Source: a virus (taxonomy: Duplodnaviria; Caudoviricetes). Taken from it: 49,933 nucleotides of DNA. Positions 16,872 to 30,458 of the stretch are shown here, piece by piece (the stretch's first letter is position 1; the number at the start of each line of letters is the position of its first letter). The stretch is from positions 1 through 49,933 of IMG/VR virus record IMGVR_UViG_3300037483_000858. One strand, given 5' to 3'. Both the position numbers and the translations under genes were made by a program. The notes under the pieces were generated by a model. That model worked only from the letters and a program-made list of their open reading frames with translations, was not told the DNA's origin and ran no database searches.

Positions 16872-17111
16872 ATGTATGAAATTATGCCTGATGACGAGCG
16901 ACAAGATTGGCTGGAAGAGGCGAAGCGGCTACTGGCCGAGCTCGGACCGATGTATTCCGAGATCGCGCGCCGTGTCGGTAAGAGCCGCCAGCTGGTCCAT
17001 TACCACCTGACCGGTGCCCGCAAGCAGCGCCGCCGGCTGACGCCCGAGCAGGCCATGCGCCGCCGCGTCTATGCGCGGGAATATGCACGACGGAGGAGGA
17101 GGGGTGAGTGA
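16872..17111 (+). CDS. Small basic HTH protein
   Basis: YSEIARRVGKSRQLVHYHL helix-turn-helix. Confidence 0.6.
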   Translation: MYEIMPDDERQDWLEEAKRLLAELGPMYSEIARRVGKSRQLVHYHLTGARKQRRRLTPEQAMRRRVYAREYARRRRRGE

Positions 17112-18562
17112 ACTGGTACAACGAAATAGACGCCTACGCCGCCGAGTGGCTCGAGAACCTGATGCTCGACGGGCTGATACCGGCGGGCGTCGTGGACCGG
17201 CGGCCGATCGAGGATGTGTCGCCCGATGACCTCATTGGATTCGACCAGTGCCACTTCTTCGCCGGCATCGGCGGATGGCCGCTCGCGCTCAATCTTGCAG
17301 GATGGGGCGAATCTGAGTGTTGGACCGGATCGTGCCCGTGCCAGCCGTTCAGCGCCGCCGGTAAGCGCAAAGGGGTTGACGATGCCCGCCACCTCTGGCC
17401 CGAATTCCGGCGTCTCATCGCTGCCCACAGACCCTCTGTCATCTTCGGGGAACAAGTCGCCAGTTCAGACGGGCGAGCGTGGTTCGGTGGCCAGCCGGGT
17501 TTGCAGCGGGTGCAAGATCGAGAAGCCATTATCGGAGTATTACAAGGGCGAGACCTCCCTGGGCGGCTACCGGACACGCTGCAAGCAATGTTGTTGTGCG
17601 GAAGAGGCGGCGCGCAAATCTCGCATACCGAAGGCGAAGAGGAGCGCCGACTTCAAGAAGTGGCGGCGGCAGAGCCGCGGGGCTGCTCTGGTTCGGCTGG
17701 CGCATCATCGTGCGAAGGCGAAGGGGTTGCCCTGCACGCTGGACCCGAAGGCGGTTCAGGCGGTGATCGATTCCGGGGAGTGCCAGATGACGGGGGTACC
17801 GTTCAACCTGGACGGGGGCCGAACGTGGGACAGCCCTTCTCTGGACAGAATCGACAACTCGAAGGGCTATGTCCCGGGGAATGTTCGCGTGGTGCTTTAT
17901 TGCATCAACGTGATGGCGAACACATGGGGCGAGAACAAGATCGTGGAGATCGCGGAAGCGATCATGGCGCGGCGGCGGAATGCGTCAGCGTCTTTGCAGG
18001 CGAGGCTGGAATCCGCGTTGAAGCGACGGCTGAGTTCCGAGAACTCGCCGGAGTACGCGCTGACCTGGAAGCATTGGGATATGCCTGCGGGGGTGCCGAT
18101 CTGTGCGCTGCGGGCGTCGGGGCGCCGCACATCAGGCAACGGCTTTGGTGGGTGGCCGACTCCGGTGGGTTCTGTATCGGAACCGGCCGCTTGGAAACCG
18201 GGCGTGCCGTGGTGGAAACAGAGCCGGGCAGCGAGGGGTCTGTCGGCGGTGGCGGGGTGGGCGACGCCGACCAGTCGGGACTATCGCAGCGAGAGCGCGA
18301 CGGACGAGTTCAACGCGAAACGGTGGGGTCACAGCCGGGGCAAGCCGCTGTCGGCGGAAGCAACCCTGGCTTCTGGTCCGGTTTCGACCTCATCCCCTGC
18401 GCAGACGGAAAAGCGCGGCGCGTTGAACCCGGAACATTCCCGCTGGCTCATGGGGTTTCCGCCCGAGTGGGCAAGCTGCGCGCCTACGGCAATGCCATCG
18501 TCCCGCCGCTCGCGGCAGAGTTCATACGCGCGTGCATTGAAGGCGATGTTCGACTGACCTGA
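17108..18562 (+). CDS. C5 cytosine DNA methyltransferase, alpha (catalytic) polypeptide with a 187-codon insertion
   Basis: Motif I FFAGIGG, IV GSCPCQPFS, VI GEQV, VIII GAPHIRQRLW, X LRAYGNAIV. Motif IX is absent from this frame. Confidence 0.88.
   Translation: MNWYNEIDAYAAEWLENLMLDGLIPAGVVDRRPIEDVSPDDLIGFDQCHFFAGIGGWPLALNLAGWGESECWTGSCPCQPFSAAGKRKGVDDARHLWPEFRRLIAAHRPSVIFGEQVASSDGRAWFGGQPGLQRVQDREAIIGVLQGRDLPGRLPDTLQAMLLCGRGGAQISHTEGEEERRLQEVAAAEPRGCSGSAGASSCEGEGVALHAGPEGGSGGDRFRGVPDDGGTVQPGRGPNVGQPFSGQNRQLEGLCPGECSRGALLHQRDGEHMGREQDRGDRGSDHGAAAECVSVFAGEAGIRVEATAEFRELAGVRADLEALGYACGGADLCAAGVGAPHIRQRLWWVADSGGFCIGTGRLETGRAVVETEPGSEGSVGGGGVGDADQSGLSQRERDGRVQRETVGSQPGQAAVGGSNPGFWSGFDLIPCADGKARRVEPGTFPLAHGVSARVGKLRAYGNAIVPPLAAEFIRACIEGDVRLT
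17487..18557 (+). CDS. Overlapping-frame beta polypeptide of the MTase: Zn-ribbon + HNH-like nuclease fused to WPTP-type TRD and motif IX
   Basis: CSGC..KPLSEY..CKQC; SLDRIDNSKGYVPGNVRVV..CIN; YALTWK, GWPTP, WATPTSRD, LNPEHSRWLMGFPPEW. The frame is open from 17214; the true start (GTG 17487 or earlier) is uncertain. Confidence 0.75.
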   Translation: MASRVCSGCKIEKPLSEYYKGETSLGGYRTRCKQCCCAEEAARKSRIPKAKRSADFKKWRRQSRGAALVRLAHHRAKAKGLPCTLDPKAVQAVIDSGECQMTGVPFNLDGGRTWDSPSLDRIDNSKGYVPGNVRVVLYCINVMANTWGENKIVEIAEAIMARRRNASASLQARLESALKRRLSSENSPEYALTWKHWDMPAGVPICALRASGRRTSGNGFGGWPTPVGSVSEPAAWKPGVPWWKQSRAARGLSAVAGWATPTSRDYRSESATDEFNAKRWGHSRGKPLSAEATLASGPVSTSSPAQTEKRGALNPEHSRWLMGFPPEWASCAPTAMPSSRRSRQSSYARALKAMFD

Positions 18563-24045: not shown

Positions 24046-24635
24046 TGCACGGCCCCCTGTCCGCCCTGTGGTTCGCCGATATTGAGGCCATGGAAGGCGA
24101 CGCGCTCCTTTCGGCGACACAGGCCGACGTGCTGAGGGTTCTGGCACGTGCGGCGCCCGAGCGTCTCAGCGCGCGGGTGATCGGTTCCGTGGCGGTTCCT
24201 CACCTGCCCGTCGGCACTGTTGAGTCCAGCGTTGGCGTCCACATATTCCGTGTTCGTCAGGCCATGCGCGACGTGCGGGCCAGTTTCGTCGTGGACGGCA
24301 GGAGAGGCCAAGGGAACGGCTACTGGATGTCGCCGGCTGCAGGGACGTACACGCCGCGGCCCCCGGTTTCCGAAGCGCAAATAGCCGCTGCGCTCGACGT
24401 CAAGTGGTCGCCGATGGAGCGGCGCATCATGGAGACCCTCATCGCTGCCGGCCGCAGTCGCCGGACAGGCTTTCAGATCGCGGACAGCGTGTATGCGGAC
24501 GACTCGGACGGCGGGCCGCTGACTGCGAAAAATTCCGTCACCGTGACGATCCTCACCATGCGCAAAAAGCTGCCGCCGGGGCTGCGCATCGCCAGCAAGC
24601 CGCACCATGGTTACCGGCTGGAGGTGGCGGGGTGA
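24045..24635 (+). CDS. Tandem winged-helix (OmpR/PhoB effector-like) protein
   Basis: Two wHTH units ending G.GNGYW and HHGYRL; the second contains YADDSDGGP..V.I..MRKKL. Confidence 0.7.
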   Translation: MHGPLSALWFADIEAMEGDALLSATQADVLRVLARAAPERLSARVIGSVAVPHLPVGTVESSVGVHIFRVRQAMRDVRASFVVDGRRGQGNGYWMSPAAGTYTPRPPVSEAQIAAALDVKWSPMERRIMETLIAAGRSRRTGFQIADSVYADDSDGGPLTAKNSVTVTILTMRKKLPPGLRIASKPHHGYRLEVAG

Positions 24636-25777
24636 GCGTCGAGATACTCACAGGCGACGTGCTCGGCGCGCTGGACCTGCTGCCGGACGAAAGCGTGCAT
24701 TGTGTCGTGACCTCGCCGCCCTATTGGGGCCTGCGGGATTACGGCACGGCGCAGTGGGTAGGCGGCGATCCAGCGTGCGATCACCAGCCCACCAACACGA
24801 CCAGAATGCCGTGGGCGAACGCGGTTAAAGGGCCGAATGCTCAGGGGAAGAACGGGGCGACTTACGCAAACATGACCAAGGAGACCGGCGGCGTCTGCGG
24901 CGTCTGCGGCGCGGTGCGCGTGGACCAGCAGATCGGTCTCGAACCGACGCTCGGCGAGCATCTGGAGACGATGGTTCGAGTGTTCCGTGAGGTGCGTCGC
25001 GTGCTGCGCAAGGACGGCACCCTGTGGCTCAACTATGGCGATTGCTACGCCACCTCGCCCAACGGGCGCAAGGCCGCTGACGTCGTCAACGACGATCGCA
25101 CCTTTCGCGACAAGCCGTTCTCGACCATCGGCGGCCACCTCAAGGCCAAGGACCGCGCGCTTCTGCCGGCCAGGGTCGCGATCGCGCTGCAGGAAAGCGG
25201 CTGGTGGGTGCGCGACGAGATCATCTGGCACAAGCCGAACCCGATGCCGATAAGCGTCAAGGACCGCACCACTCCGGCGCACGAGATGCTCTACATGTTC
25301 TCCCGGTCGGCGCGCTACCACTACGATCAGGAGGCGATTAAGGAGTCGGTCGCCGAGTCTAGCAAGGCCCGCCTAGCGCAATCGACTCTGCAGACGCAGA
25401 TGGGCGGGCCGAAGCAGGACGCCTATGAGAGTGGGGGAACTGGTCAGCCGGCTCGGTCACGTCGTCCTGCAGAGATTCTGAAAGACCTCGTCGGCCAAGA
25501 GACCCGTAATCGTCGGTCTGTTTGGTCAGTCAGCACCAAACCATTTGCGCAAGCCCACTTCGCCACATTCCCGCCCGACCTGATCCGGCCGTGCATCCTC
25601 GCCGGCTGTCCCGAAGGCGGCACGGTGCTAGACCCGTTCTTCGGTGCCGGCACGACCGGGCTGGTCGCGCACGAGATCGGTCGCAACTGCATCGGCATCG
25701 AACTCAATCCGGACTACGTGCTGATCGCCGCCGAACGCATCGGCTTGGATGTCTGCGGCATGGGAGTACGAACATGA
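24632..25777 (+). CDS. Beta-class amino-DNA methyltransferase (N4-C/N6-A, SPPY)
   Basis: VTSPPYWGLRDY, IIWHKPNPMP, HFATFP, VLDPFFGAGTT, GIELNP. Confidence 0.92.
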   Translation: MSVEILTGDVLGALDLLPDESVHCVVTSPPYWGLRDYGTAQWVGGDPACDHQPTNTTRMPWANAVKGPNAQGKNGATYANMTKETGGVCGVCGAVRVDQQIGLEPTLGEHLETMVRVFREVRRVLRKDGTLWLNYGDCYATSPNGRKAADVVNDDRTFRDKPFSTIGGHLKAKDRALLPARVAIALQESGWWVRDEIIWHKPNPMPISVKDRTTPAHEMLYMFSRSARYHYDQEAIKESVAESSKARLAQSTLQTQMGGPKQDAYESGGTGQPARSRRPAEILKDLVGQETRNRRSVWSVSTKPFAQAHFATFPPDLIRPCILAGCPEGGTVLDPFFGAGTTGLVAHEIGRNCIGIELNPDYVLIAAERIGLDVCGMGVRT

Positions 25778-27925: not shown

Positions 27926-28225
27926 ATGGGCGAGACCAGCTACCGACTCGGCGCCACGACCAAGGTCAGCCTGTCGACCAACAGTGCCAAGACCACCGGG
28001 CTGAACGCAGCGCCTGGCCGCGGCCACCGCACCTTCCGCCTGTGGTCCGACGTCGACTGCTTCATCAGGACCGGATCCTCGCCGACCGCAGTCGCCGATG
28101 CGCCCAGCACGCCACTGACCGCCAAGATCGCCGAGTATGTCGATCTGCGGTCGGACGAGGACGTCGCCGGCATCGTGGCGAGCTCGACCGGCAATCTCTA
28201 CGTCACCGTCTGTACCAAGGGCTGA
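27926..28225 (+). CDS. Small beta-rich putative virion protein (spike base/adaptor)
   Basis: RBS GAGGAG; jelly-roll-like composition; precedes a long fibre-like gene. Confidence 0.55.
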   Translation: MGETSYRLGATTKVSLSTNSAKTTGLNAAPGRGHRTFRLWSDVDCFIRTGSSPTAVADAPSTPLTAKIAEYVDLRSDEDVAGIVASSTGNLYVTVCTKG

Positions 28226-28229
28226 CCGA

Positions 28230-30458
28230 ATGCCGACACTGGCATCGCCGGGGCGGCTGATGGGGGCGCGTAGCTCCGGCGAAGGCGTTGCCGCCGCCAC
28301 CCTGCCGCTCAGTGCCGTCACGGTACGTGCCGATGGCGAGTCCGTATCCCTGACCCTTGGGGATTCCAAGGACGGCGGCACATGGGCCGGGCTCAACGAT
28401 CACACCGACCCCAGCCTTGCCCTGACCGTCACGTCGAAAAGCTGGACCGATGCCGGGGTTGAAACCACGCTGGAACGCACCGTCTACGCGACCAAGGTGC
28501 GCCGCAAGCCCTACCCTGATCATGCAACGATCGAGGAAACCGAGTCCGGCGCCGATCTCAACGTGATCCTGATGCTGTCGGACTATATTCATTCCGGCGA
28601 GACGGTCACATGGTCGGCCGCCGAGGCGCTGTACACCGACGACGGCACGGGCGGGTCGACCGACGCTAACACGGCACAGACCGGATCAGTCACCAACAGT
28701 TCCGCGCTTGAGTATCCACTCCCGATCGGCATGTGGCTGACGCCGGACAAGGACTGGTGCGAGGCCGATACTTACACCGCCCGGATCGGCGTTGCGCATC
28801 AATTCTTCCGGTCTGGCCAGACGGTCCGAGCGGTCAAGTTCATCGCCACCGACGAGTCCGCCAATTCCGCGTCGGCCATCGCCACGTCGATGTCCAAGGT
28901 CAGCTACACCGGTTCCGGCTTGAGCGGATCGTGCTTTGAGGCGGCGCTCGACTTCACCGGCCTGACGCAAGGCGATATGGTCACGCTCGACGCCATCATT
29001 TACCCGTGGGTCGGCGATGCCTACCAGATCAGCGTTGACGGGGTGAGTTATCCCAGCCCGAACCTGACGACGCGGCTGGTGCTCAACGACCGCACCGGGG
29101 CCTATGGCAAGGTCTATGCCTATGTCGATGGGACCGGCGGCTCACCCGCTGTGCATGAAACGGCCGCGACGGCAGCCACCACGCCCTACGACACCATCGC
29201 CAATGCGGCGGCTGGCTTGCAGACCTACATCAACGCCAATTTCAGCCGCAACAACGTCTCCGGCGGCATCATCCGACTGACCGCGACCAGTCACACGCAT
29301 TCGACCTATTCGGCCCGTGCGGTGGGGGATATCCCCCTGATCATCGAGGCGGCCGATGCCGGGAACAAAGCGACCACGATCTATCAGGACAGTGGGGCGA
29401 ACGCTTTCAACTCCATCCCAGACCTGTTGCGGATCAGGAATGTCACGCTCAAGAAGACCGCTGCTTCAATAACATTCCTCGACAGCAACGCCACCAATAA
29501 CGGCGATTTCCGGCTGACACTGGAAAACTGCGCCTTCAATATCAACGGCCAGACGCTCTATAAGGCGTGGATAAATCTGGTTGGGCATCTCGACCTGATC
29601 AACTGTGACGGCGATGACATCGGGCAGGGCGCATACCTTTCGAACGACAACTACAAGCAGACCAACGCATGGGGGTCGTCCGCCGGATCGGTAGGTGGCG
29701 CGACATTCAACGCTTTTGCTTGCAAGGCGCTAAACGGGGTGATCAATCCGGGCGTTGCCACAGGAATGCAGACCCCGGTGGGGACGTTCCTGGGTTTCTC
29801 GCACATCGCGTCTCCGACCAACGCGCAGATCATCGTAGCCTACGAAAAGGTCATAACCGCCGCCGGGTTTGGTATGCTCGGCAACGTGTTCGAACAGTAC
29901 GGCGGTGCGACGGGACCGGTGATGCAAATCTCGGGGTCGGCCACACTGACCGCCGAGAACGTGCTCGACATCGCCAACACCTGGGTCGGAGCCCGCACCA
30001 TCTTCCTCTACAACGAGACCTCGGTTCAGACGCAGGTCAAGCGCGGCATTACCTCGCTGTCGGTCCACAACACATGGAACAGCAAGTCCGACGTGTTCGC
30101 GACCGATGGTGCCTGCATCGGCAACTGGGGTGTAGTCAACCGCGTCGGATCGTTGTTCCGGGCGCTGCTGCGCGGCGGTGACGACGCGACGGCCATCGGC
30201 TCGCCAGGCGCATGGGCAGGCGAACTGGTAGCACGCGGTGATGTCACCGGATCGGTCGGCACGCCGCTTGTCGCGGACTGGACCGACGACCAGAGCTTTA
30301 CCGTCGCCGGCACCGGCAATGGCGATTACACACCGGGGGCGAGCACGGCACTTCCGCAGGTTCCGGCAGGCATGACGGCATTCCCATTCGACCAGAAGGG
30401 CCGCGCGGTTCCCACGGGCGGCACGGCTTATGTCGGGGCGATTCAGAAGGCGGCATGA
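28230..30458 (+). CDS. Putative head fibre/tailspike (742 aa, beta-helix-like C-terminal half)
   Basis: Thr/Gly/Ala/Asn-rich; AYVDGTG...PYDTIANA motif at the start of a likely parallel beta-helix; C-terminal DQKGR....YVGAIQ. Confidence 0.6.
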   Translation: MPTLASPGRLMGARSSGEGVAAATLPLSAVTVRADGESVSLTLGDSKDGGTWAGLNDHTDPSLALTVTSKSWTDAGVETTLERTVYATKVRRKPYPDHATIEETESGADLNVILMLSDYIHSGETVTWSAAEALYTDDGTGGSTDANTAQTGSVTNSSALEYPLPIGMWLTPDKDWCEADTYTARIGVAHQFFRSGQTVRAVKFIATDESANSASAIATSMSKVSYTGSGLSGSCFEAALDFTGLTQGDMVTLDAIIYPWVGDAYQISVDGVSYPSPNLTTRLVLNDRTGAYGKVYAYVDGTGGSPAVHETAATAATTPYDTIANAAAGLQTYINANFSRNNVSGGIIRLTATSHTHSTYSARAVGDIPLIIEAADAGNKATTIYQDSGANAFNSIPDLLRIRNVTLKKTAASITFLDSNATNNGDFRLTLENCAFNINGQTLYKAWINLVGHLDLINCDGDDIGQGAYLSNDNYKQTNAWGSSAGSVGGATFNAFACKALNGVINPGVATGMQTPVGTFLGFSHIASPTNAQIIVAYEKVITAAGFGMLGNVFEQYGGATGPVMQISGSATLTAENVLDIANTWVGARTIFLYNETSVQTQVKRGITSLSVHNTWNSKSDVFATDGACIGNWGVVNRVGSLFRALLRGGDDATAIGSPGAWAGELVARGDVTGSVGTPLVADWTDDQSFTVAGTGNGDYTPGASTALPQVPAGMTAFPFDQKGRAVPTGGTAYVGAIQKAA

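Follow-up and report, generated by a model that had tools for sequence, protein, structure and literature searches.

A probable homing-type nuclease cassette hidden without splicing in a phage gene for a two-frame C5 methyltransferase

A phage gene that encodes the two chains of a C5 cytosine methyltransferase in overlapping reading frames was found to contain an insert that is best explained, with a probability that we would put at roughly 0.7, as a mobile homing-type nuclease cassette that is not spliced out. The arrangement itself is real, recurrent and well supported by comparison of related sequences, and it combines two published tricks, the hidden nuclease and the two-frame methyltransferase, with a function that is predicted. 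According to the comparative data, the alpha (catalytic) chain would be translated through the insert, which would form an inert spacer in the loop following motif VI, while translation of the beta chain would begin near motif I, run through the nuclease and go on to the beta helix, the hairpin and motif IX. As the nuclease is an internal domain of beta, it needs neither a start nor a stop codon of its own, and since the insertion point is coded in two frames, the cassette un-overlaps about 20 codons, leaving one flanking copy (copy 1) for alpha and the other (copy 2) for beta. In a mixed infection, or on encountering a prophage, the nuclease would cut insert-less (“empty”) alleles near this doubly constrained site, repair would copy the cassette together with some of the downstream flank, and the altered sequence of both copies would shield the insert-bearing (“filled”) allele. 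Catalysis, the empty-allele target, self-immunity and homing are the parts of this mechanism that we infer.

The DNA analysed (here called the window) is a single contig of 49.9 kb, and all coordinates count from its first letter. It carries genes for a terminase, a major head protein, an integrase, a DNA polymerase and a primase-helicase, a gene content that points to a temperate phage, and the methyltransferase locus sits in the replication and recombination arm. Standard annotation gives one long methylase here, missing both beta and the nuclease. The original prediction, made from the letters of the window, had claimed two open frames at 17108..18562, with motifs I, IV, VI, VIII and X in frame A and motif IX in frame B (the layout of M.EcoHK31I), and a 561-nt block separating RAWF from AGVRADLE in frame A. 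Both ORFs were indeed found there, all of the motifs could be located, motif IX does lie in the nested frame, and the block is bounded by the end of RAWF at 17485 and the start of AGVRADLE at 18047. The motifs are numbered I to X. The features are as follows.

17108..18562, + strand: frame A, alpha (catalytic) chain, C5 cytosine methyltransferase (PF00145; phrog_363, E 1e-67)
17214/17226..18557, + strand: frame B (+1), beta chain with internal nuclease (phrog_1008, phrog_31772, phrog_3322)
17214..17428, + strand: beta leader, overlapping alpha motifs I-IV; predicted to be disordered (pLDDT below 50), stop-free in relatives
17252-17275, + strand: alpha motif I, frame A
17327-17353, + strand: alpha motif IV, frame A
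17429..17485, + strand: flank copy 1, in which alpha motif VI is retained (RPSVIFGEQV..W) and the beta-helix bases are relaxed
17447-17458, + strand: alpha motif VI, frame A
17486..18046, + strand: the insertion in frame A, a stop-free spacer loop of 187 codons with no residue constraint of its own
17502..17591, + strand: CxxC..CxxC zinc ribbon, frame B, with a match at the N-terminus of PacI; missing from one subfamily
17664..17975, + strand: predicted PacI-type beta-beta-alpha-Me nuclease core, frame B, with D-R..Y..N..N at 17838-17909
17990..18046, + strand: flank copy 2, in which the beta helix is retained (LQARLESALKRRL) and the alpha motif VI bases are gone
18045..18119, + strand: beta hairpin (YALTWK..ICALRAS), overlapping alpha motifs VII-VIII
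18122-18145, + strand: alpha motif VIII, frame A
18153..18269, + strand: two W-x-T-P repeats, beta variable region
18153-18164, + strand: beta WPTP, frame B
18258-18269, + strand: beta WATP, frame B
18423..18470, + strand: motif IX of beta, frame B
18482-18502, + strand: alpha motif X, frame A

Frame A encodes 484 aa, including the 187-aa spacer, and frame B, if read from ATG 17214, encodes 447 aa, of which residues 94-257 match endonuclease families and residues 257-437 match methyltransferase families. The W-x-T-P repeats, which we take to be (putatively) TRD-like, number from 0 to 6 per locus, 0 being seen solely in two truncated loci.

That the insert belongs to a family of such loci became clear from several searches. 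The frame-B protein gave 1177 matches, of which the best 120 were examined; among these listed matches the nuclease motif occurs in 99 of 119 non-self proteins, with the beta motifs downstream of it in 88 of those 99, and the remaining 20 of the 119 are uninterrupted beta chains. A search of three collections with a DNA pattern built on just the nuclease motif, which picks loci irrespective of open frames, gave 34 loci, 33 of them in this methylase gene, and after duplicates and one near-duplicate (L233) had been dropped there remained 24 distinct loci, including the window. The catalytic Pro-Cys of alpha is intact in all 24, and in 23 the net insert is 140-196 codons long. For comparison, empty alleles were taken by similarity to the window: the spacing between motifs VI and VIII is 38 residues in 102 of 106 distinct alleles as against 225 in the window, a net gain of 187 codons, so that the alignment to uninterrupted homologs proposed beforehand as a check does map the insertion. 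Filled alleles are rare (1 among the best 80 alpha matches). No isolate phage with a filled allele was found, 0 of 339 records covering 80% of alpha, and further isolate-phage searches gave only distant free-standing kin or one empty-type beta. When IMG/VR was searched with the nuclease by itself, 80 distant relatives came back, not one of which lies beside this methylase; these were the source of the free-standing control used below, and such kin occur in numbers of up to three per phage genome.

Some individual loci deserve mention in their own right. The one exception in insert length, L219 (frame A 1205-2803), has an alpha that is unbroken through motif VIII with the cassette placed after it, and this cassette brings its own beta helix and hairpin, amounting to a wider un-overlapping of both frames. 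The single free-standing locus among the 34 (L237) is of the TWDSPS subfamily, has no methylase around it and has 2 stops in the other frame, making it a candidate for the ancestral state. L115, L203 and L211 (two empty alleles and one filled allele) share an extra stretch of some 21 residues, inserted between motifs VII and VIII of alpha, again with both frames open.

It is scarcely credible that the locus is a pseudogene or an assembly artefact, and nothing was found in favour of either. The motifs are intact in 24 distinct loci; one contig (run X1, possibly the source of the window) spans 17092-18127 with 0 differences; and contigs of another study (X3) carry an insert-bearing relative over 17256-18073, their loose ends at 18044 resembling empty alleles. 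Taken with the stop avoidance described next, this contradicts the pseudogene that the original prediction had named as an opposing outcome. A contig of a further run (X4) joins across the whole methylase locus (window 17121-18546), suggesting that related phages swap or lack the methylase gene.

The strongest statistical evidence concerns the way in which alpha passes through the insert. Across the 24 distinct loci there is not one frame-A stop within it, whereas 153 would be expected from synonymous shuffles of frame B, and this bears out both the description of the frame-A block as stop-free filler and the stop-avoidance check that had been called for; homologs with frame-A stops across the insert, which would have told the other way, numbered 0 among these loci. 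For the window alone 5.7 frame-A stops are expected by such a shuffle (P of none, 0.001), while its third frame has 5 stops against 5.6 expected. The avoidance can be seen directly in codon choice, as T occupies the third position before AA, AG or GA in 0 of 968 cases compared with 603 of 2372 elsewhere, and the corresponding frame is open in 0 of 50 free-standing relatives, including 17 with a GC content of at least 50%. Chance openness of both frames is thus regarded as excluded on these comparisons. In the 72-codon core pN/pS values are 0.29/0.70 for frame B and 0.42/0.28 for frame A, and identity in frame A is 0.316, against 0.308 ± 0.005 when it is simulated as a shadow of B; frame B is thus under purifying selection there, and frame A is constrained against stops and by little else. 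The absence of stops (0 vs 153), together with the absence of residue-level constraint, indicates that alpha is translated through the insert.

The same evidence bears on splicing, that is, on removal of the block as a self-splicing intron or as a frame-A intein. An in-frame length and look-alike flanks do occur at some introns, as described in the available text of PMC11855218; yet RNA removal would relax selection and so lift the stop constraint, in conflict with the 153 missing stops. The insert had no Rfam match at E<=1 and no unusual RNA folding (z-score -1.2); no RNA data set containing the locus was listed, which tells neither way. As to an intein, frame A has no conserved residues across the block, intein-type ends were looked for in it and none were seen, Pfam gave no match for frame B or for either frame's reading of the insert, and the insert boundaries are not the same in frames A and B. 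Splicing is therefore very improbable.

The position of the nuclease within beta depends on where beta begins. The candidate starts (ATG 17214, 17226 or 17382) are all upstream of the nuclease. In the 100 scorable alleles among the 106 empty ones, frame B between motifs I and VI contains 1 stop where 65 would be expected, with an ATG just upstream in 97 of the 100; in filled alleles (22 of the 24) the same stretch has 2 stops against 14.3 expected. Frame B thus begins near motif I, and it follows that the nuclease is an insertion within beta. The nuclease that was earlier claimed to be fused to the target-recognition subunit is thus internal to beta (a putative TRD chain), following a leader of about 85 residues rather than lying at the start of the chain.

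The flanks of the insert show, as a natural experiment, what happens when a doubly coded segment is un-overlapped: the copies have divided the labour at the level of single bases. In empty alleles a single stretch codes for alpha motif VI and the beta helix together; in filled ones the third-position T bases that specify beta leucines are retained in copy 2 and lost from copy 1. For 102 empty alleles and for 24 (copy 1) and 23 (copy 2) filled ones, the frequency of T at the Val codon of GEQV is 1.00 (empty), 0.08 (copy 1) and 0.96 (copy 2), at the Phe codon 0.92, 0.25 and 0.78, and at the Pro codon 0.93, 0.21 and 0.83. Conversely, the first and second positions of the Pro, Glu, Gln and Val codons are at 1.00 in copy 1 and at 0.2-0.6 in copy 2. 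No DNA repeat was found between the flank copies of the window, which are merely 16/60 identical, implying that the split is old. The predicted duplication with subfunctionalisation is thus confirmed at the level of individual bases, though not as a repeat in the DNA, and it appears to be visible solely through which constrained bases each copy retains.

Turning to the nuclease itself, D207, Y215, N219 and N228 (numbering from 17226) are invariant in all 92 sequences of an alignment of the window with 91 nuclease-bearing proteins (of the 99, 8 were dropped as partial or very long); R208 is present in 89 of the 92, and the stretch aligns with PacI 91-113. Among solved structures PacI ranks first by sequence (E 0.89) and by profile, where the match runs over the zinc ribbon and DR..Y..N..N (E 0.046), as well as in Foldseek (E 1.6e-3) and in VIA (Z 6.8, rmsd 2.6, 79 aligned), the two fold matches being middling; these matches are weak one by one yet concordant, and the insert nuclease is accordingly assigned to the PacI type, for which catalysis is predicted. 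The fold used was an alignment-based model, a single-sequence fold having given a pLDDT of 43.7; it is confident over about residues 90-270, and in it the last nuclease helix and the beta helix form one run (236-268). PacI, as described in PMC5714182 and PMC4081073, has no histidine and uses a loop tyrosine instead, with Asp and Asn binding metal. The His-to-Arg (DR) variant pointed out earlier is therefore real, but with a PacI-type active site, where Tyr replaces His, it is by itself no sign of decay. The beta-beta-alpha-Me core foreseen in frame B is likewise predicted here; the zinc ribbon is kept in 15 of the 24 loci (and in 53 of 71 in the nuclease alignment) but is missing from the other 9. 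Telling against a PacI-like nuclease, the second, Cys4 zinc site of the PacI core is not conserved, C186 alone being invariant, and zinc is reported in PMC11529989, in such text as is available, to be needed for PacI cleavage. No usable target emerged when the window was examined for palindromes that are under-represented.

Evidence for mobility comes from the distribution of the insert. On an alpha tree from which the insert was excluded (130 rows), its presence requires 21 changes as compared with 22.3 for shuffled labels, and on a smaller tree of 110 rows (20 without a segment having been dropped) 18 as compared with 19.4, both trees being short, quick LG+G4 runs; a single clade of 21 filled alleles is rejected (p-AU 0.00114). 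Among 55 of the 92 proteins (those that were complete and had core identities under 90%), nuclease similarity correlates with that of the adjacent helix (0.44) and hairpin (0.30), but hardly with that of the leader upstream (0.05) or of motif IX (0.03). Leader and motif IX, on either side of the insert, correlate with one another (0.29). Since ordinary recombination would link these farthest flanks least, and they are linked, a cassette with short downstream co-conversion fits. Insert-bearing alleles are thus scattered among empty ones, with cassette-like inheritance. On the other side, core identity among the 24 loci reaches at most 0.75, with no almost identical nucleases seen in hosts that differ clearly, so that recent spread draws no support from them. 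Counting against a homing life cycle is that it predicts decayed cassettes and none were seen, though the searches favour intact ones.

Two possible signs of self-immunity were considered and rejected. The commonest empty-allele hexamer occurs in 0 of 24 filled and 81 of 106 empty alleles, but about 1.3 would be expected neutrally in the filled ones (an estimate from codon counts), so that its absence gives no support; and CAA-GTC for the Gln-Val of motif VI is enriched (15 of 24) relative to codon use in the window, which shared ancestry explains equally well.

The original prediction had left a choice between a homing nuclease hidden in the overlapping frame and a compact enzyme resembling a restriction-modification system. 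In the second case alpha and the beta-nuclease would form a domesticated holoenzyme, methylating the phage's DNA and, at the site that it methylates, cutting DNA of the host or of a competitor that lacks the methylation, with the variable region guiding both activities and the nuclease tied rigidly by one helix. Several points favour it: in none of the 24 loci is the nuclease separate from beta (0 frame-B stops across the insert), its catalytic residues never vary and no decayed copy was seen, and its last helix continues, in the models, as the beta helix docking on alpha. Loss of the zinc ribbon from 9 loci could moreover mean less DNA reading by the nuclease itself, in which case the ribbon-less subfamily would have passed that role to the variable region, and the available text of PMC9957025 raises the same alternative for another methylase insertion. 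As to the docking, the structure model of alpha with beta 80-425 scored 0.86 as against 0.00 for the best control, a mark reached by 116 of 157 solved pairs and by 2 of 215 mismatched ones; the runs share at least 51% of their contacts and partner pLDDT is at least 72. This lends support to a predicted association of alpha and beta, and so to a host enzyme that could still assemble despite a mobile insert, although the score may stem from likeness to solved monomeric C5 methyltransferases. The confident contacts join alpha on either side of the spacer to the beta copy-2 helix, hairpin, second WxTP and motif IX, and the named interface omits spacer residues 128-314 and nuclease residues 88-246, giving no confident contact between nuclease and alpha, although residues that are not named are merely uncertain. 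What weighs against the holoenzyme is that most alleles are empty, that the filled ones form no clade and that neither distal flank varies together with the nuclease; in addition PacI reads DNA by itself and is described in the available text of PMC5714182 and PMC4081073 as having no partner methyltransferase. The holoenzyme is accordingly considered unlikely, and the homing-type cassette, for which stop avoidance, polyphyly and flank decoupling all speak and whose nuclease activity is predicted, the better explanation of these sequence data. If the holoenzyme were nevertheless true, it would show a restriction-modification enzyme born of a selfish nuclease in an overlapping gene.

Strong purifying selection and the failure to see decay might also be explained if a former homing cassette now served as a weapon of phage against phage (marker exclusion of empty-allele relatives) or as a non-cutting DNA-binding domain, with the patchiness arising from ordinary cassette exchange. 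Marker exclusion is described as a known by-product of homing endonucleases (PMC2988022, in the text available), and the T4 Srd group (phrog_1400), which bears an anti-sigma factor annotation, belongs to the nuclease family. On the other hand the invariant metal ligands and tyrosine favour catalysis, and the weapon predicts the same target as homing, which makes the two hard to tell apart. This idea is rated as distinctly improbable.

Of known systems, the closest in operation are the ShiLan and Pacc40 elements (PMC11855218 and PMC9957025, as far as their available text goes), which are likewise frame-preserving, apparently unspliced insertions in a phage methylase and share with the present locus the nuclease in a second frame, a host-frame loop that lacks structure, flanks that resemble each other and a patchy distribution. 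There are, however, clear differences: the ShiLan HNH is a classical, His-containing nuclease with its own start and stop, while here, in all 24 loci, the nuclease frame runs on into beta with no intervening stop; the catalytic motif of ShiLan gp65 is of the DPPY type, making it by our reading an amino-methyltransferase, whereas the present enzyme is of the C5 type and two-framed; and here the nuclease is of PacI type and an internal domain of a host subunit, with the flank split over two frames. The nuclease profile built here gave nothing at E<=1 against ShiLan gp65. The locus thus seems to work like the hidden-HNH element of ShiLan while not being homologous to it.

M.EcoHK31I (YGGCCR), from the available text of PMC2836561, has motifs I-VIII and X in alpha and motif IX in a beta encoded in another frame inside alpha, a likeness to the present locus that is one of layout; its TRD is placed in alpha. 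Here, by contrast, the enzyme is a phage orphan, beta is open from near motif I and carries the conserved WxTP repeats, and a nuclease is present. The 87 flanking ORFs examined include no gene that is conserved next to the methylase, for example one for a cognate restriction enzyme. With PacI (PDB 3LDY/3M7K; His-Me finger group 20 in the available text of PMC5714182) the insert shares an N-terminal zinc ribbon, a helix and the D-R..Y..N..N core, while differing in the second zinc site, which is not conserved, and in being fused inside beta. Aeh1 mobE in nrdA and T4 mobA in gene 60 are described (PMC2988022, again in part) as homing genes that similarly lack an intron or intein, but those insertions split the host into separate chains, whereas here both host chains are unbroken. 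No description of a nuclease within a two-frame C5 methyltransferase was found in a literature search that was thin on subscription papers and supplements.

If correctly read, the locus indicates that codon choice in the second frame is enough for a nuclease to be maintained inside a gene that its host needs, without help from an intron or an intein, and the statistical support for such persistence is strong, support of a kind absent from the available text of the ShiLan papers (PMC11855218, PMC9957025). It also suggests an answer to the question about translation that the same text leaves open for ShiLan, namely that the nuclease rides inside an existing nested subunit. The family may in addition yield new rare-cutting PacI-like enzymes with a predictable target.

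Some further observations may be recorded. In phage ShiLan, gp70/gp72 (L239:4344-6507) comprise a gene resembling a C5 alpha chain and, after it, a distinct gene in which one stretch is reminiscent of motif IX (a weak match, E 0.037); the pair may represent a two-chain enzyme in un-overlapped form. In the window, a 773-aa ORF 3' of the DNA polymerase (28137-30458, +) is Thr/Gly-rich and has no PHROG match at E<=1e-4, and at 24404-25777 (+) there is a second DNA methyltransferase (phrog_67, SPPY motif), which has a Cys-containing insertion past its catalytic motif.
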